From Candidatus Woesearchaeota archaeon (GTDB lineage: Archaea > Nanobdellota > Nanobdellia > Woesearchaeales > BM511), in NCBI GenBank assembly GCA_002867475.1, contig PKTL01000051.1, positions 4,640 to 68,639 of the forward strand: a stretch of 64,000 nucleotides of DNA, read 5' to 3'. Shown piece after piece: positions 15,971 to 55,183 of this stretch (positions are counted from its first letter, which is position 1; each line of letters starts with the position of its first letter). The notes beneath the pieces were generated by a model. The model was not told the origin of the DNA. It saw only the letters and a program-made list of their open reading frames with translations, and made no database searches. Made by a program: the position numbers and the translations under genes.

Positions 15971-16079
15971 GCCACGATGGGACAATCTGGTACTCCGACA
16001 GACTGGAAATTGTTGTTTTCCAACTCTAGGTATCTGTTTTGCTTTGCATATCCCGGTTCAAATCCGGGTCGTGGCGCCA
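15971..16079 (+). tRNA. tRNA gene with a non-canonical intron (~33 nt extra), encoded CCA; possible anticodon GAA (Phe) from a CAGAC-UGGAAAU-UGUUG arm, but anticodon not firmly assigned
   Basis: 5' GCCACGA pairs with 3' TCGTGGC followed by discriminator G and CCA; perfect T-arm CCCGG-TTCAAAT-CCGGG; D-loop AATCTGGTA; a TATA-like AAATTTTATAAAG lies ~30 nt upstream. Confidence 0.6.
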
Positions 16080-16081
16080 TT

Positions 16082-16135
16082 TCTTATTAAATTAAATGTG
16101 AAATCTAAAAGGATTTGAATCGTCCCGGTTCATGT
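16082..16135 (+). repeat. 54-bp direct repeat, copy 1 (TCTTATTAAATTAAATGTGAAATCTAAAAGGATTTGAATCGTCCCGGTTCATGT)
   Basis: Identical 54-mer recurs at 18759..18812; it contains the T-stem 5' strand plus TTCA, identical to the tRNA at 15971. Confidence 0.8.
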
Positions 16136-16203
16136 ACGAATTATTTTACAATTCGACACACAGAAGAGTAAAACTCTTCTAGTGAATCCGGGTCGTGGCG
16201 TCA
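16124..16203 (+). other. tRNA 3'-end-like module: T-stem CCCGG / TTCA / ~52-nt structured insert / AAT / CCGGG / TCGTGGC-G-TCA (acceptor 3' strand identical to the tRNA at 15971); no matching 5' half nearby
   Basis: The insert carries two strong hairpins (CGAATT..AATTCG; AGAAGAGT..ACTCTTCT), consistent with a T-loop intron or an att-site remnant. Confidence 0.4.
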
Positions 16204-16353
16204 TTTATCTTTTGTTTATATACTCTCATCTAACTCGGACCAGTTTCCGTACTTTTTACAAATTTCTAAAATGTTATTCTAAAAAGAAATAGGTCGCCAT
16301 CATATATAAACGGATGTCGGATGTGAGGCATCACTAAGACACCTTTTAAAAAA

Positions 16354-17460
16354 TTATTTTAGTAATTGGACATTATAACAAGCTCTATCCATAAATTTAT
16401 ATTTTTCACTTGGTTTACCAACAAGTATTTTTTGTCCGACTAATTCTTTAACTTCTTCTCTAGGCATAACTCCAAAATCCACATAAATAGTTCCTTCTCT
16501 AGTATGAGCACCATATACTTTTCTTTCACCGCTAAAGAAATCATGTATTTCATACGCTAATAAAACAATTTCTAAACCTTCATTTAACTTTGAAAGGTCT
16601 TGTTGCCAATTAAAATTTCTAGCCCAATTAATGTATGCTGATTCAATCATAGAAGCAGTAAAAGAAGTATATGAATCAGGTAAACTTCTAACTTTTTCAA
16701 AAATTTTTTTCTGTTCTTCTGAAGAAAATTCAGTTTTTGCGCCAATATCAGCAAATCTAACAATATAATTTCTTTCATTACACTCTTCTATAGTTGGTTC
16801 TTCAGGTTCTGTATTATTAATTGCATAAAACAGTTCCCTCATAGCATTTTTTCCGAGAATGACATTTCTTGCAGCGGCTGCAAAACCTCGTGGACCATCA
16901 TATTCGCCCCAACTTCTAACTAAATCTTCATCCATTGATTCACAAACTTGGTCTAAATCTAAAATCATTGATTTATTTCTACTAGACCAATTATGAAATA
17001 TTTTTTGAACACCTTTTTTAATTAAGGGAATAGAATCATAGTTAGGTTCATTTCTCGATGCTATATTTTTGTAATTTGGATCAAAATATTTTATAAAATC
17101 AATAATCGCCCATTCTTCTTGAGATATTTCTGTAGGTTTTTCTCTTAAATATTCAAAATCTCTATGAGTGCATTCACCCAATAAATTTTCTAAATATCTC
17201 GCAACTAATAATTTTTCCCTCTTTTCAATTGGAGAAGTTGGATTTGATAGAACTTGAAAATTTCCTTTTTTTTGTGATGAACCATTACTCCAATAATCTA
17301 ATTTTTCTAAAATTATTTCTCTATTAAAATATAAACCAATAGGATTTAAATTCTTGTTAGTAACATCCAATACTAAATCTCCTAATTCTTCATTTAGAGA
17401 AATATTAAATTCTTCAGGACTTAAAAATGCCTTTTTTATATGAAAAACCAAATTATCCAT
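16354..17460 (-). CDS. hypothetical protein (368 aa) within the repeat-bounded segment
   Basis: Long non-overlapping ORF with no motif I recognise; a conserved ~25-nt motif lies upstream of its start. Confidence 0.5.
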   Translation of the reverse strand: MDNLVFHIKKAFLSPEEFNISLNEELGDLVLDVTNKNLNPIGLYFNREIILEKLDYWSNGSSQKKGNFQVLSNPTSPIEKREKLLVARYLENLLGECTHRDFEYLREKPTEISQEEWAIIDFIKYFDPNYKNIASRNEPNYDSIPLIKKGVQKIFHNWSSRNKSMILDLDQVCESMDEDLVRSWGEYDGPRGFAAAARNVILGKNAMRELFYAINNTEPEEPTIEECNERNYIVRFADIGAKTEFSSEEQKKIFEKVRSLPDSYTSFTASMIESAYINWARNFNWQQDLSKLNEGLEIVLLAYEIHDFFSGERKVYGAHTREGTIYVDFGVMPREEVKELVGQKILVGKPSEKYKFMDRACYNVQLLK

Positions 17461-17571
17461 ACTGTAAAAATATGTAACTACTATATAAAAGTAACTAATA
17501 CATTTATTTGCCGAGCCGAAATGGCGTTTTAATGAGGCAAGATTTATATGTCCATCAAATCTATTAACTAT

Positions 17572-18579
17572 TTAGTGCCCATATAAATTCATGAGTCTTT
17601 CAAATAAAAATTCCGTTAAAGGTATTGAATCACCCTCTCTTGACACTTCCATTAAGTCTGTAAATTCTATGTGATCTTCTGAAGGAAAATCTACAGGCGG
17701 TAAATTATTTTGAATTAGCATCCAGTTGAAAATTAATCTAGAAACTCTTCCATTTCCATCAATAAATGGATGAACCAATATGAAAGCAGAATGAAAAAGA
17801 ATTGTTTTTTCAAATAAAGATAATTTCGACTTATTATATTTATCAATAACTTCTTGAATGAGTTGCTTTATTTGTCTACCTCCTTTAGGAGGATAAAATT
17901 TTGAACCCATCATTGCTACATTTTGACCTTTTTTCCTATATTTACCTTCATTTTTTGGATTTTCTAAAGTATTTTTAGTTACAAGTTCATGCAACATTAA
18001 AATAAATTTATGATCTAACTCCCCTTTGTATGTCTCAATATATTCATAGGCTTTTACAGTATTTTCAATTTCATAAACTTCTCTCAAAGAATGAGATTTT
18101 GGGACAATACCTTTATTTAATATAAGTTCAGTCTCTTTTAAAGAGATTGTATTACCTTCAGCTTTATTTGTATTGTATGTGAATTTTATTAGAAACGATT
18201 CTCTAACTTTTTTTAAAACATCTTTATCAGTAAGTTTGATTTTTTCTTTATATTTTTCTTTAAGTGCAACAATTTTTTCAATTTGTTTAGAAGATAATAT
18301 ATTCTTTGAAAAATCTATATTCATTTCAAAAGTTTCTCTTTCAAGTTTTTCAAATAGTTTTATCTTAGTTTCAAGAAGCTTTTTCTTCTTAGTGATTAAA
18401 TATTCTAATTTTGTTTTATCAAGGTCAACACCCAAGAATACTCTAATTTTTTTATATTTAGAATCTAAATTGATAGTGTGTGCCAAATAAAAATACTTCT
18501 TTTTTCCTCTTTTTTGTATTTCTGTGTAGACCATATAATAATATATGTCCACAAAATATATAAATTTTTCTATGGACAT
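17572..18579 (-). CDS. Fic/Doc family protein (putative AMPylase / toxin-like)
   Basis: Canonical Fic motif HPFIDGNGRVSRL; N-terminal coiled-coil-rich extension. Confidence 0.8.
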   Translation of the reverse strand: MSIEKFIYFVDIYYYMVYTEIQKRGKKKYFYLAHTINLDSKYKKIRVFLGVDLDKTKLEYLITKKKKLLETKIKLFEKLERETFEMNIDFSKNILSSKQIEKIVALKEKYKEKIKLTDKDVLKKVRESFLIKFTYNTNKAEGNTISLKETELILNKGIVPKSHSLREVYEIENTVKAYEYIETYKGELDHKFILMLHELVTKNTLENPKNEGKYRKKGQNVAMMGSKFYPPKGGRQIKQLIQEVIDKYNKSKLSLFEKTILFHSAFILVHPFIDGNGRVSRLIFNWMLIQNNLPPVDFPSEDHIEFTDLMEVSREGDSIPLTEFLFERLMNLYGH

Positions 18580-18758
18580 ACATTTGCCGAGCCAGAATGG
18601 CGTTTTACTTGGCGAAACTATTTAAATGAAAGCACCCATTTATTAATCATGGCAAAACTTGACGTGCTTTTTCAAGCACTCCGCCAAAAAAAAATCAAGA
18701 ACACAGACAACAAATGCCCAATTTACAGGTAGAATTACGGGTGCGAAATCACGTTCTC

Positions 18759-18812
18759 TCTTATTAAATTAAATGTGAAATCTAAAAGGATTTGAATCGT
18801 CCCGGTTCATGT
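18759..18812 (+). repeat. 54-bp direct repeat, copy 2
   Basis: Identical to 16082..16135. Confidence 0.8.
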
Positions 18813-18875
18813 TATGAAGAGTCAAGCTCTTCAAAGTTCAAAGCAAAGCTTTAAACAATCCGGGCGTTAGCGCCA
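18799..18875 (+). other. second tRNA 3'-end-like module: CCCGG / TTCA / ~48-nt structured insert / AAT / CCGGG / CGTTAGC-G-CCA; acceptor 3' strand differs from copy 1
   Basis: Same architecture as 16124..16203 but with different insert hairpins (GAAGAG..CTCTTC; AAAGCTTT palindrome) and a different acceptor strand; no complementary 5' strand GCTAACG found nearby. Confidence 0.4.
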
Positions 18876-18925: not shown

Positions 18926-19237
18926 ATGATAAAAAAGATTATCGCATTATTGATGCTTCCTTTAGCAATATTTATTATTCTTGAAGAGATAAATATTTTT
19001 TCATTGAATCTATTTGTTGATAAAGTCTTAATTGGAGCACTTGCAATGATTGCTTTTCAGATCACTAACTTAATATTTTTAAAAATACATAATGGACACC
19101 TTGGAATCTTACAAGTTACTACAAGTCTTTTGTTCATCATCCCAGGAATAGTTTATTTTCTTCCCTTTACTATTCTAAATATTAAACTTATTATTGGTGT
19201 CATGATGCTTGCTGAAAGCAGCTACGCGATGCATTGA
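18926..19237 (+). CDS. small integral membrane protein
   Basis: 103 aa with three hydrophobic helices. Confidence 0.3.
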   Translation: MIKKIIALLMLPLAIFIILEEINIFSLNLFVDKVLIGALAMIAFQITNLIFLKIHNGHLGILQVTTSLLFIIPGIVYFLPFTILNIKLIIGVMMLAESSYAMH

Positions 19238-22170: not shown

Positions 22171-23448
22171 ATGCTAGATATAAAATTATTGAGAGAAAAT
22201 CCTAAAGTTATAAGAGATGATTTAAAGAAGAGAAATGATAGTGAGAAGCTTAAGCTTCTTGATAAGACCATACAGCTTGACTCTGAATGGAGAGAAGAGC
22301 TAAAGAAAGTTGAAGCATTAAAGGCTGAACGTAATAAGCTTTCAAAACAGGTAAACCAGGTTAAAAAAGAAGGCGGCGATATAAAGCCTATCCTTGAGGA
22401 AGTTAAGGCTATTCCTGAAAAGATTGCTGAGATACAGGAAGGTGTTGATATCCTTTTCAAAACTATCAGATATAATCTTATGGCTTTGCCAAATATCCTT
22501 CACGAATCTGTCCCAATCGGTGCTAGTGATGAAGAGAATATTGAAGTTAGTACTTTTAATGATAAGCCAAAGCATGATTTTGAACTTATTAGCCACGTTG
22601 ATCTTTTACCTCAGATAGGTGCTGTCGATCTTGAGAGAGCAGCAAAGATTTCAGGCGCAAGATTTTATTTTTTAGAAGGAGATCTTGCAATGCTTGATTT
22701 TGCACTACAAAAATATGCTATCGATTTCATGAATAGTAAAGGTTTTAGGATTGTTTATCCTCCTTTCATGATGAACCGTGAAGCGTACGAAGGAGTCACT
22801 GACTTGGACGATTTTGAGGAAGTCATGTATAAGATTGAAGATGAGGATCTTTACTTGATAGCTACTAGCGAACATCCTATGACTGCAAGGTTTAAGGATG
22901 AAGTTCTTGATGCTAAAGACCTCCCTATAAAGAATGCTGGTATCAGTGCTTGTTTTAGAAAAGAGGCTGGTGCTCACGGAAAGGATCAGAAAGGAATATT
23001 TAGGGTTCATCAGTTCAATAAGATTGAGCAGATAGTTCTTTGCAATCAAGAGGATAGCTATACTTATTTTGATGAGATATTCAATAACGCGCTTGAGCTT
23101 TTCAAAAGCTTAGGTCTTCATGGAAGGGTTGTTAATGTCTGCACGGGTGACATGGGAACTGTTGCTGCAAAAAAGTTTGACATAGAAGTATGGTATCCTG
23201 TTCAAGATGCTTATAGAGAAGTTGTTAGTTGCAGTAATTGCACAGATTACCAGAGCAGACGACTTAATATCAAGTATAGGACTCCTGAAGGCAACAAACA
23301 GGTTCATACATTGAATAGCACTGCTATTGCTACAAGTAGAGCAGTTGTTGCAATTGTTGAGAATTTCCAAGATAAGGAAGGAAACATCCACATCCCCGAA
23401 GTTCTTTGGCCTTATATGAATGGTGTTAAGGTTATCAGCAAGAAATAA
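22171..23448 (+). CDS. serS: seryl-tRNA synthetase
   Basis: N-terminal coiled-coil tRNA-binding arm; class II motifs (FRKEAGAHGKD, GDMGTVAAKKFDIEVW). Confidence 0.9.
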   Translation: MLDIKLLRENPKVIRDDLKKRNDSEKLKLLDKTIQLDSEWREELKKVEALKAERNKLSKQVNQVKKEGGDIKPILEEVKAIPEKIAEIQEGVDILFKTIRYNLMALPNILHESVPIGASDEENIEVSTFNDKPKHDFELISHVDLLPQIGAVDLERAAKISGARFYFLEGDLAMLDFALQKYAIDFMNSKGFRIVYPPFMMNREAYEGVTDLDDFEEVMYKIEDEDLYLIATSEHPMTARFKDEVLDAKDLPIKNAGISACFRKEAGAHGKDQKGIFRVHQFNKIEQIVLCNQEDSYTYFDEIFNNALELFKSLGLHGRVVNVCTGDMGTVAAKKFDIEVWYPVQDAYREVVSCSNCTDYQSRRLNIKYRTPEGNKQVHTLNSTAIATSRAVVAIVENFQDKEGNIHIPEVLWPYMNGVKVISKK

Positions 23449-51712: not shown

Positions 51713-51727
51713 GCCCAGGTCGCATAG
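51713..51727 (+). repeat. 15-nt duplicate of the tRNA 5' end (GCCCAGGTCGCATAG) lying 80 nt upstream of the tRNA
   Basis: Exact match to 51793..51807. Confidence 0.5.
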
Positions 51728-51792: not shown

Positions 51793-51953
51793 GCCCAGGT
51801 CGCATAGTCTGGTATTGCGCAGACACAAATGAAAACATTTTCTTTGTGGCGTAAGATTGCTAAGTACTACGTCAGTGCTTATGATAACCTGACTATATCC
51901 GCAAGGATCCTGTCCCATCGGGATCATGGGTTCAAATCCCATCCTGGGCGCCA
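51793..51953 (+). tRNA. tRNA gene (161 nt) with long non-canonical intron(s), a class-II-like extra arm, and encoded CCA; anticodon not assigned
   Basis: 5' GCCCAGG pairs with 3' CCTGGGC followed by G and CCA; T-arm ATGGG-TTCAAAT-CCCAT; D-loop AGTCTGGTA; extra hairpin ATCC-GCAA-GGAT. Confidence 0.6.
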
Positions 51954-53716: not shown

Positions 53717-55183
53717 ATGGCAACAGAAAAAGAACTTCTAAAATCATTAAATGATAAGCAAAAGGCTTATGTCGACTTAAAGCTCAAAAATCCTAAAAAT
53801 GGAGAATACATGTTAGGTGTTTTCCATATGCTCCCTGGTGGGGATTTGAACATGCTTCAAGCAGCAGCAGAAATCGCTGCAGAAAGCAGTACAGGAACCA
53901 ATTTTAAGGTTCAAACCGAAACCCCTTTCAGTAGAGAGATGAACGCACTTGTTTACAAACTTGATCTAAAGAAAGATCTTGTTTGGATAGCTTATCCTTG
54001 GAGGCTTTTTGATAGGATTGGTAATGTTCAAAACATCCTAACATATATTGTTGGTAATGTGCTTGGTATGAAAGAAGTCAATGCATTGAAATTACTTGAT
54101 GTATGGTTTCCGCCAGCTTTTTTAGAACAGTATGATGGTCCTAGCTATACTATTGATGATATGAGAAAATATTTGGATGTTTATGATAGGCCGATTTTAG
54201 GAACAATAGTTAAGCCAAAGATGGGACTAACAAGTGCTGAATACGCAGAAGTTGCATATGATTTTTGGGTTGGCGGAGGAGACTTTGTTAAAAATGATGA
54301 ACCTCAAGCAGACCAAGATTTTTGCCCATATGACAAAATGGTAAAACATGTTAAGGAAGCTATGGATAAAGCTGTTAAAGAAACTGGAAAAAAGAAAGTC
54401 CATTCATTTAATGTTTCAGCAAGTGATTTTGATACTATGATTAAAAGATGTGAAATGATAATTAGTGCAGGTTTTGAACCAGGTAGTTTTGCTTTTTTAA
54501 TTGATGGGATAACTGCTGGTTGGATGGCTGTTCAGACACTTAGAAGAAGATATCCAAATGTTTTTATTCATTTCCATAGAGCGGCTCATGGAGCATTTAC
54601 TAGACCTGAAAATCCTTTTGGTTTTAGTGTTTTAGTTCTCTCAAAATTTGCTAGACTCGCTGGTGCTAGCGGCATCCACACAGGCACTGCAGGCGTTGGT
54701 AAAATGGCTGGAACCCCAACAGAAGACATCACCGCAGCACATAATATTTTGAAATTTGTTAGTGACGGTCATTTTTTCAATCAGGAATGGGCAAAAGTTC
54801 CAGAAAATGATGAAGATGCAATAAAAATTGTTCATGAAGATGAAGCGCACCACATAATACTTGAAGATGATAGTTGGAGAGGAATGAAAAAATGCTGCCC
54901 TATAATTTCGGGCGGACTTAACCCAACTCTTTTGAAGCCTTTTATTGATGTTATGGGTAGCACTGACTTCATAACCACAATGGGTGCTGGTTGTCATGCT
55001 CATCCTAAAGGCACTAAGTCAGGGGCTGCTGCTCTTGTTCAATCATGCGAAGCATATCTTAAAGGTATAAGCATTGAGGAATATGCTAAGACCCATAATG
55101 AATTGAAAAAAGCTATAGATTTTTTCTCAAAAAAGAAAAATAAAAGTGTTGAGCAAGCTGAGAAAACTGAAAGTAGTAGCTAA
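53717..55183 (+). CDS. rbcL: ribulose-1,5-bisphosphate carboxylase/oxygenase large subunit, form III (archaeal)
   Basis: GVFHMLPGG..., GGDFVKNDE, catalytic-Lys region, GGLNP motifs; Lys-rich C-terminal extension. Confidence 0.9.
   Translation: MATEKELLKSLNDKQKAYVDLKLKNPKNGEYMLGVFHMLPGGDLNMLQAAAEIAAESSTGTNFKVQTETPFSREMNALVYKLDLKKDLVWIAYPWRLFDRIGNVQNILTYIVGNVLGMKEVNALKLLDVWFPPAFLEQYDGPSYTIDDMRKYLDVYDRPILGTIVKPKMGLTSAEYAEVAYDFWVGGGDFVKNDEPQADQDFCPYDKMVKHVKEAMDKAVKETGKKKVHSFNVSASDFDTMIKRCEMIISAGFEPGSFAFLIDGITAGWMAVQTLRRRYPNVFIHFHRAAHGAFTRPENPFGFSVLVLSKFARLAGASGIHTGTAGVGKMAGTPTEDITAAHNILKFVSDGHFFNQEWAKVPENDEDAIKIVHEDEAHHIILEDDSWRGMKKCCPIISGGLNPTLLKPFIDVMGSTDFITTMGAGCHAHPKGTKSGAAALVQSCEAYLKGISIEEYAKTHNELKKAIDFFSKKKNKSVEQAEKTESSS

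Follow-up and report, generated by a model that had tools for sequence, protein, structure and literature searches.

Two short modules that resemble tRNA 3' halves in the genome of a Candidatus Woesearchaeota archaeon (DPANN) are, in our assessment, probably relics of recombination junctions, that is to say displaced 3' ends of a tRNA-Ser gene, rather than genes for tRNA halves; we place the probability of this reading at roughly 0.7. The stretch of DNA analysed, hereafter the window, is 64 kb long, and the locus within it runs in the order RsmI, tRNA-Ser(GGA), variable genes, a transglutaminase and SerRS, with the modules bracketing a 2.7-kb island that holds a Fic gene and an ORFan. The reading starts from what is directly observed, namely the identity of the tRNA fragments in the modules, their orthology with functional alleles of the gene, the variation in module copy number, and the absence of splice geometry at the module junctions. 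The initial annotation of this DNA had weighed split or trans-spliced tRNA 3' halves with a T-loop intron against remnants of a tRNA gene used as an att site. The latter alternative is backed by the comparative evidence from two related loci (those on contigs L008 and L009), and the former, as detailed below, is not supported.

Architecture of the two modules

Both modules are built alike, and consist of a 54-nt repeat, CCCGG-TTCA, an insert with two hairpins, AAT-CCGGG and a 7-nt acceptor 3' strand. They are present as originally described, namely as T-arms broken after TTCA by an insert, and the span given for copy 1 holds; the start proposed for copy 2 (18799), however, lies 2 nt early, and the proposed insert length of 48–52 nt does not extend to copy 2, in which the insert is 47 nt long. 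The 54-nt repeat, recovered by a repeat search and by a pattern search with shuffles and then located by its coordinates, is an exact direct repeat on the forward strand with copies at 16082..16135 and 18759..18812. These are 100% identical to each other, and no shuffle produced a single match. Copy 1 starts four bases past the tRNA-Ser(GGA) gene and is made up of an AT-rich leader, a hairpin (AAATC/GATTT), an inverted copy of the T-arm (GGATTTGAATCG, 16111-16122), CCCGGTTCA (16124-16132) and TGT; the corresponding positions in copy 2 are 18788-18799 for the inverted T-arm copy and 18801-18809 for CCCGGTTCA. A TATA-like TTAAATTAAAT (16087-16097 and 18764-18774) ends 26 nt ahead of the CCCGG, in agreement with the 25–30 nt first reported for it; in L008 the leader has been conserved only in part. 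The 54-nt repeat as a whole is a candidate recombination core.

Insert 1 (52 nt, 16133..16184, forward strand) is composed of TGTA, a hairpin CGAATT/AATTCG, ACACAC, a hairpin AGAAGAG/CTCTTCT and AGTG, and L008 has the same linkers with other stems. Insert 2 (47 nt, 18810..18856, forward strand) opens with a hairpin GAAGAG/CTCTTC, which resembles the second hairpin of insert 1, followed by a hairpin GTTCAAAGC/GCTTTAAAC. Folding bears out the earlier description of two hairpins per insert that are unlike between the copies, with fold z-scores ranging from -2.8 to -4.8.

The fragment of copy 1 (16185..16203, forward strand) reads AATCCGGGTCGTGGCG-TCA, i.e. AAT-CCGGG-TCGTGGC-G-TCA, and corresponds to a displaced 3' end of a type-A tRNA-Ser (types A and B denote the two acceptor forms given below). 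It duplicates 16061-16076 and is joined to the ancestral downstream flank, being collinear with the intact tRNA 3' end and flank of L009. The fragment of copy 2 (AATCCGGGCGTTAGCGCCA, 18857..18875, forward strand), i.e. AAT-CCGGG-CGTTAGC-G-CCA, has an intact T-stem and an encoded CCA, and is the 3' end of a type-B tRNA-Ser(GGA), matching the 3' end of the functional L008 tRNA at 19/19 positions. The two fragments diverge past AATCCGGG. Signs of decay are apparent in the TCA that replaces CCA in copy 1 and in a T-stem mismatch (CCAGG) in the module of L008.

Resident tRNA genes

Default ARAGORN, as well as Rfam at the gathering threshold, returned no tRNAs in the window. With its intron option ARAGORN recovered a functional tRNA-Ser(GGA) at 15971..16079 on the forward strand, which is matched by the Rfam tRNA model (RF00005) with 41.9 bits under relaxed filters. 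It has a long variable arm and a 23-nt canonical intron at 37/38, whose bulge-helix-bulge (BHB) has a 4/4 core and a 6-bp outer helix, and its acceptor, GCCACGA/TCGTGGC-G-CCA, defines type A. The end of copy 1 was thus rightly matched to the upstream tRNA in the initial annotation, TCGTGGC being the acceptor strand of this gene. Allowing introns also revealed a tRNA-Leu(CAA), with an intron of 67 nt, at 51793-51953. From the 5' part of the tRNA-Leu gene, 15 nt are duplicated 80 nt upstream of it, and hence short tRNA-gene duplications happen elsewhere in this genome too.

Comparison with related loci and assemblies

The relatives compared were the contigs that carry homologues of the upstream RsmI gene (L008, L009, L011 and L095). 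The RsmI of the window itself shows 100% identity to an NCBI MAG protein recorded for Candidatus Woesearchaeota. L008 represents a sister lineage from the same JGI sample, with an RsmI 89% identical to that of the window, followed by an orthologous class-II tRNA that has the anticodon loop CTGGAA and a canonical intron. In the ARAGORN output it appears as Thr(GGT), owing to a one-base shift in where the intron is set; its long variable arm and its homology mark it as Ser(GGA). Its acceptor, GCTAACG/CGTTAGC-G-CCA (type B), is that of the copy 2 fragment in the window. What had been taken for a different tRNA identity in copy 2 is hence the L008 allele of the same tRNA-Ser(GGA) gene. The L008 tRNA is in turn followed by a module of the same build, which ends in AATCCAGG-TCGTGGC-G-CCA, i.e. 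with the acceptor type of the window, and then by the same flank. This mirror arrangement means that the co-occurring lineages hold each other's tRNA 3' ends as fragments.

In L009, where RsmI identity is 69%, the 3' end of the type-A tRNA passes straight into the shared flank without a module. This implies that the 3' piece of copy 1 is the ancestral end of the gene, displaced by ~124 nt; the ~124 nt of inserted sequence would have supplied the new T-stem 3' strand, acceptor strand and CCA. At the position of window copy 2, L009 has a decayed fragment, AATTCGGGCGCAAGGCACA, which lies beyond a different cargo gene, a 166-aa ORF set between the same conserved flanks. L011 and L095 (RsmI 62%) keep the RsmI-tRNA-Ser synteny without modules and have other content past the tRNA, and the acceptor of L095, CGTTGGC, is near type B. 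Between lineages the tRNA-Ser exons are 77% identical, as against 81-86% for the adjacent non-coding DNA, and the alleles are mosaic, with L009 combining acceptor A with an L008-like body.

The module instances available number three and come from two lineages (window copies 1 and 2, and L008). An exact scan of metagenome and genome contig collections with the module core GATTTGAATCGTCCCGGTTCA gave no matches, these collections being evidently without the lineage, and a scan of metagenome contigs with the conserved flank motif gave none either. In an RsmI profile search of genome contigs, bacterial RsmI swamped the list and no Woesearchaeota appeared, and the contigs of further RsmI relatives (P0004, P0005, P0015, P0018 and P0101) are too short or are without the tRNA-Ser synteny.

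Over the module region the JGI contig has an arrangement identical to that of the window, and an ENA contig (L002) equals the window on both sides save for one extra tandem copy of the 124-nt unit. Given that both contigs carry the arrangement, an assembly artefact is ruled out. Short-read contigs end within the repeats. The module is present once or twice among assemblies that are otherwise identical.

The island between the repeats

Downstream of copy 1 lies a conserved non-coding left flank (16204..16353), in which alignment reveals the blocks CATCTAACTCGGACCA and AAATAGGTCGCCATCATATATAA common to L008 and L009, and which is 81% identical to L008 and 75% to L009. The cargo that follows comprises two genes on the reverse strand. 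One (16354..17460) encodes a 368-aa ORFan: profile searches against Pfam, NCBIfam and PADLOC assigned it to no family with a score above the curated cut-off (the best NCBIfam match, to XopAG, is far sub-threshold at 14.6 bits versus a cut-off of 400), and homologue searches found no relative among 5.8 billion proteins. The other (17572..18579, with its start at 18534 according to gene callers) encodes a Fic/DOC-family protein (Pfam PF02661, E = 7e-17; PADLOC PDC-S04, E = 3e-32) that resembles the candidate defence families PDC-S04 and SoFic. The island closes with a conserved non-coding right region (18580..18758), which is common to L009 by alignment and holds a Fic promoter-proximal motif, picked up by motif search, and a short ORF (18649-18732, forward strand). 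For a 103-aa ORF no relatives were found.

Pfam searches detected no integrase or recombinase domain in the island or in 36 other ORFs of the window, and the Pfam table for the window between ~5.3 and 25.9 kb (about 24 called genes) lists no integrase. Comparison of the island with phage and plasmid records by blastn gave no match, and scans of viral contigs gave no episomal or viral counterpart. The 21 matches obtained in one such scan proved on inspection to be ordinary minus-strand tRNA genes or phage tail genes.

Probable displacement of tRNA gene ends by recombination

In the scenario that we favour, each exchange would leave a complete tRNA gene beside the native promoter and would push the 3' end of the prior gene, from T-loop position 58 onward, downstream. 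Copy 1 would then be the displaced end of the type-A gene and copy 2 a type-B end at the far border of the island, with the 54-mer as the shared core through which the island, or a circle carrying it, might recently have joined the chromosome, and via which it could be lost again. Since the 54-mer is identical at both sites and the inserts and fragments that follow it differ, we infer that the latest event was a recombination within the 54-mer; it would have joined a segment comprising insert 1, the type-A fragment, the flank, the cargo and the right region to a chromosome with the order tRNA-A, 54-mer, insert 2 and type-B fragment. If the repeated ends underwent unequal exchange, this would account for the 124-nt unit being found once or twice. 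The junctions may have been made by a site-specific recombinase that acts elsewhere or acted in the past, with the 54-mer as its putative core site. This scenario is favoured by the mirror arrangement of functional and fragment acceptor types in L008, by the module-free passage from tRNA to flank and the decayed copy 2 counterpart in L009, by the extra 124-nt unit of L002, by the decay of the fragments, by the bracketing of accessory cargo (the Fic gene and the ORFan) along with the different cargo of L009 between the same flanks, and by alleles that are mosaic and whose exons are less alike between lineages than the flanks are. Against it stand the lack of a recombinase in the island or the scanned ORFs of the window and of an episomal or viral counterpart, and the restriction of the module instances to three from two lineages.

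In the classic model of integration into a tRNA gene, the displaced fragment lies directly after the DNA of the element. This model does not predict the second CCCGGTTCA that is situated 47-52 nt upstream of the fragment, the inverted T-arm copy or the structured inserts. Likewise, a crossover in the T-loop, as in the classic model, cannot on its own alter the 5' acceptor strand; as L008 and the window differ on both acceptor strands, whole-gene replacement or an additional exchange is needed. Integrases that target tRNA genes are known to leave a regenerated gene and a displaced fragment at the ends of islands (PMC4383910), and the T stem-loop is counted among the three known regions of crossover, with tandem integrations on record in archaea (PMC8371274). 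Like the islands of the Islander type, which involve tyrosine integrases and a crossover in the T-stem-loop or at the 3' end, the present locus has a complete tRNA gene followed by 3' fragments on the same strand (16185-16203 and 18857-18875, each extending to the 3' end of the gene). These begin in the T-loop and bracket accessory DNA, the content between conserved flanks varies (as in L009, and also in the other content of L011 and L095), tandem or serial events are seen at one tRNA, and a fragment keeps the older allele. Unlike in those islands, no integrase is encoded inside this one, and what is perfectly shared is the 54-mer, which precedes the fragments, and not a segment of the tRNA. 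Furthermore, between the fragment and a second T-stem 5' strand there is a two-hairpin insert of 47-52 nt, the T-arm also occurs as an inverted copy, and the proximal "element" measures no more than about 105 nt.

The closest precedent is the tRNA-Thr(GGU) locus of Caldiarchaeum subterraneum (PMC3293823), where co-occurring strains likewise possess different versions of the gene together with a stranded fragment of the other version. The population-level heterogeneity of tRNA allele, fragment and intron in that organism has been attributed to a mobile element (PMC3293823), with integration followed by recombination, and an attP copy of the tRNA segment that may bear additional inserted sequence was proposed (Sugahara et al. 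2012, PMC3293823). The Caldiarchaeum locus differs in having a 5' fragment, a recombinase gene between the fragment and the gene, and a true BHB intron in the functional tRNA, whereas here the inserts reside in non-functional 3' fragments and are accompanied by neither BHB geometry nor a recombinase.

A predicted four-way junction

The leader of the module holds GGATTTGAA(Y)CG(G), which is the reverse complement of the T-arm, and in L008 the inverted copy is that of its own tRNA T-arm, exact over 13 nt. Within the inverted copy, the 3' part is paired to CCCGGTTCA and the 5' part (GGATT) to the five bases that open the fragment (AATCC); together with the two hairpins of the insert, these pairings form a predicted four-way junction, which has no unpaired junction nucleotide in copy 1 and L008. 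When the leader is included, no predicted fold of copy 2 or of the L008 module has a lower energy than this one, whether RNA or DNA parameters are used, and in copy 1 it comes to within 1.7 kcal/mol of the optimum. Common to the window and L008 are the linkers TGTA, ACACAC and TAGTG, which pair as TGT:ACA and CAC:GTG. The stems that these linkers enclose are wholly different between the window and L008, yet perfectly paired, and a MAFFT alignment of the three modules misaligns these variable hairpins. The mutation in the L008 fragment breaks the T-stem reading (-18.7 vs -27.7 kcal/mol) and spares both the GGATT:AATCC helix and the four-way fold. On these predicted folds, the module hints at selection on a folded form, be it RNA or single-stranded/cruciform DNA.

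Alternative explanations

We consider it highly improbable that transcripts of the modules serve as the 3' halves of split or trans-spliced tRNAs, with a T-loop intron cut by the splicing endonuclease and with 5' halves encoded elsewhere. Archaeal tRNAs are known to be split at 37/38, 29/30 and 25/26. The module shares with the split tRNA genes of Nanoarchaeum equitans and Caldivirga the archaeal (DPANN) setting and a promoter-like AT-rich leader before the tRNA 3' portion, and with the non-canonical T-loop introns of Thermoproteales the interruption within the T-loop; unlike these, it has no BHB and, within the window, no cognate 5' half and no complementary leader or trailer. The TATA-like box 26 nt upstream of the CCCGG and the intact T-stem and encoded CCA of copy 2 would be in keeping with transcribed halves, as would the occurrence of split tRNAs and broad-specificity endonucleases in DPANN archaea (PMC3239211; preprint 10.64898/2026.05.13.725050). 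Moreover, copy 1 and L008 have inserts that end, as the canonical introns here do, in CTAG-TG or TTAG-TG ahead of an A, whereas the insert of copy 2 (TTAA-AC ahead of an A) does not. However, in a junction-specific BHB test, which used the canonical introns of three tRNA-Ser genes as positive controls, all three controls gave 4/4 central-helix pairs and a 6-bp outer helix, and the inserts of all three modules gave 0/4 and 0 bp, so that the geometry expected of the T-loop intron proposed at the outset is absent from every insert junction. In folds with the T-stem pairing CCCGG:CCGGG, an uninterrupted TTCA/TGAA helix encloses the junctions of copy 1 and of L008, though not those of copy 2. The earlier statement that neither copy has a 5' acceptor strand nearby stands for copy 2, GCTAACG being absent from the + strand across the 64-kb window, but not for copy 1, as GCCACGA is the 5' end of tRNA-Ser(GGA), this complete gene being its sole occurrence in the window. 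The copy 2 acceptor, which is the orthologous allele of the sister lineage, pairs with the resident 5' strand at just 3/7 positions. Split tRNAs are further set apart from the modules by the isoacceptor, which is here encoded intact next door (15971-16079), type B being the L008 allele of the same tRNA-Ser(GGA). Since both acceptor types have one and the same leader, it can be specific to neither. The reading as tRNA halves is also at odds with the decay of the fragments, i.e. the broken T-stem in the L008 module and the TCA in copy 1, and with a module copy number that differs between otherwise identical strains. An origin as decayed paralogues is distinctly unlikely, if less so than an origin as tRNA halves: here a tRNA-Ser with a T-loop insertion would have been duplicated by slippage or unequal crossing-over and its 5' parts lost, with neither site-specific recombination nor a mobile element taking part. 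The 124-nt unit is indeed found duplicated in tandem, in L002, and the tRNA-Leu gene has its duplicated 5' fragment, but such an origin leaves without account the swapped fragment types of the window and L008, the bracketing of variable accessory genes by the copies, and the presence of a perfect 54-nt non-tRNA leader beside differing inserts. Certain other candidates were rejected, namely IS200/IS605, IS91 or Helitron-like mini-elements inserted after TTCA/GTTC (the three inserts do not go back to one copied sequence, and their ends mismatch one another), a miniature casposon (there are no terminal inverted repeats), a permuted tRNA (no 5' part comes after the fragment), and an interrupted SRP or other known RNA (there is no Rfam match).

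Somewhat less improbable than either, though still unlikely, is that the module folds into an element with a function of its own, be it an RNA or a recombination site acting as single-stranded or cruciform DNA, in which case the tRNA-like pieces would be kept by selection and would not be fossils. The inverted copy would then rebuild a duplex mimicking the T-arm, from which the two variable hairpins would protrude. In integron attC sites and the attP of CTX phage, imperfect inverted repeats fold and rebuild the duplex site of the recombinase. The module resembles these in retaining structure as the sequence varies and in its variable protruding structure; unlike them, it comes with no IntI or Xer-type enzyme and no R/L box consensus, and the likeness is an architectural one, drawn from the predicted four-way fold and the variation of the stems. 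Such an element would be consistent with the energies of the four-way junction (lowest in copy 2 and L008, near-optimal in copy 1), with conserved linkers around different but paired stems, with the 13-nt match of the L008 inverted copy to its own T-arm, and with an L008 mutation that abolishes T-stem pairing and leaves GGATT:AATCC untouched. The hairpin loop of 3 versus 4 nt between lineages would, in addition, be awkward for a dimer binding duplex DNA. On the other side, the three instances from two lineages make the covariation anecdotal, the conserved linkers are missing in copy 2, and the structured part is dispensable for the locus, as L009 has the island without it. There is also no Rfam family match for the module, no recombinase candidate and no sign of a single-stranded stage. 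We accordingly see an outside chance that the module could be a new kind of folded recombination site or small structured RNA, through which co-occurring DPANN strains would swap cassettes and whole tRNA-Ser alleles with no integrase encoded locally.

Conclusions

Reading the modules as displaced gene ends removes a tempting false positive, in that they do not represent a new class of split tRNA. Island borders with displaced tRNA-gene ends are of a known kind, and the twist in this case is that they come with no integrase, with reciprocal swapping of alleles and with a structured junction module. The last of these, with its inverted T-arm copy, paired hairpins of changing sequence and perfect 54-nt core, may be the part that is new. 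The locus documents the replacement of tRNA-gene alleles, with stranded fragments, in a DPANN population, and illustrates one route by which sequences that look like tRNA halves arise in archaeal genomes, which bears on the debate as to whether split tRNAs are ancient or derived from the activity of mobile elements. If the module were an active recombination site or RNA, it would provide a mechanism for the exchange of cassettes and tRNA alleles in ultra-small archaea that are without obvious on-site integrases.

The island locus in related genomes and in a second assembly

The non-coding stretches on either side of the island cargo (16204-16353 and 18580-18758) are retained as far as L009, a contig from a relative with no more than 69% RsmI identity to the window, and the cargo ORFs lying between these conserved flanks differ between the two. 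Both stretches align with L009; the identity of 75% over 114 aligned nucleotides applies to the left stretch only. The right stretch includes a short plus-strand ORF of 27 aa (18649-18732), and a similar basic peptide is found in L009. The two island genes, which are encoded on the minus strand, also possess a common upstream architecture. This comprises a motif of the form TTGCCGAGCC(RR)AATGGCGTTTTA (plus-strand reading; 17508-17531 and 18584-18607), followed by a palindrome, TATGTCCA...TGGACATA (17547-17585 and 18542-18580), which at both genes covers a TTTATATA box immediately ahead of the ATG. This arrangement looks like a promoter and operator common to two unrelated cargo genes, and a diverged version of it is present in L009.

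In L095, a contig from another relative (RsmI 62% identical), the non-coding DNA downstream of tRNA-Ser retains, in frame, a short vestige of the active-site motif of Fic proteins (FVDGNGRVGR; L095 4100-4140). Hence, Fic genes may be recurrent at the tRNA-Ser(GGA) hot spot. The ENA contig of the same strain, L002, is identical to the window at every base apart from a second 124-nt unit, such that two tandem copies of this unit (leader, CCCGGTTCA, insert and tRNA-Ser fragment) occupy its positions 1461-1708. Searches against approximately 5.8 billion proteins with the 368-aa island protein (16354-17460) and with a 103-aa membrane-like protein encoded just past copy 2, the downstream module (18926-19237), recovered in each case the query itself and no other homolog.

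Downstream of the tRNA-Ser(GGA) hot spot, at a distance of 6 kb, a seryl-tRNA synthetase gene (22171-23448) follows a transglutaminase-like gene. A transglutaminase-like gene is also found downstream of tRNA-Ser in L095, a contig that stops short of any position where the synthetase might be expected. The linkage of tRNA-Ser(GGA) with its synthetase gene is probably coincidental.

Stranded fragments and the detection of intron-containing tRNA genes

The first 15 nt of the tRNA-Leu(CAA) gene (51793-51953; intron of 67 nt), spanning the acceptor 5' strand to the D-loop (GCCCAGGTCGCATAG), recur 80 nt upstream (51713-51727), with the GGTCG of this duplicate forming a hairpin with a neighboring CGACC. 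Thus, the second tRNA gene of the window is likewise accompanied by a stranded fragment, here a 5' piece. Because of their introns, neither this gene nor tRNA-Ser(GGA) (15971-16079) was called by ARAGORN with default settings or by Rfam at the gathering threshold. Routine annotation will under-count tRNAs in such genomes, and this under-counting could give stray fragments the appearance of "missing halves". A "tRNA-Ser(ACT)" that ARAGORN reported at lowered stringency (54456-54654; intron of 112 nt) falls within a gene for the RuBisCO large subunit (Pfam PF00016, E = 1.8e-90; 53717-55183) and is a false positive.
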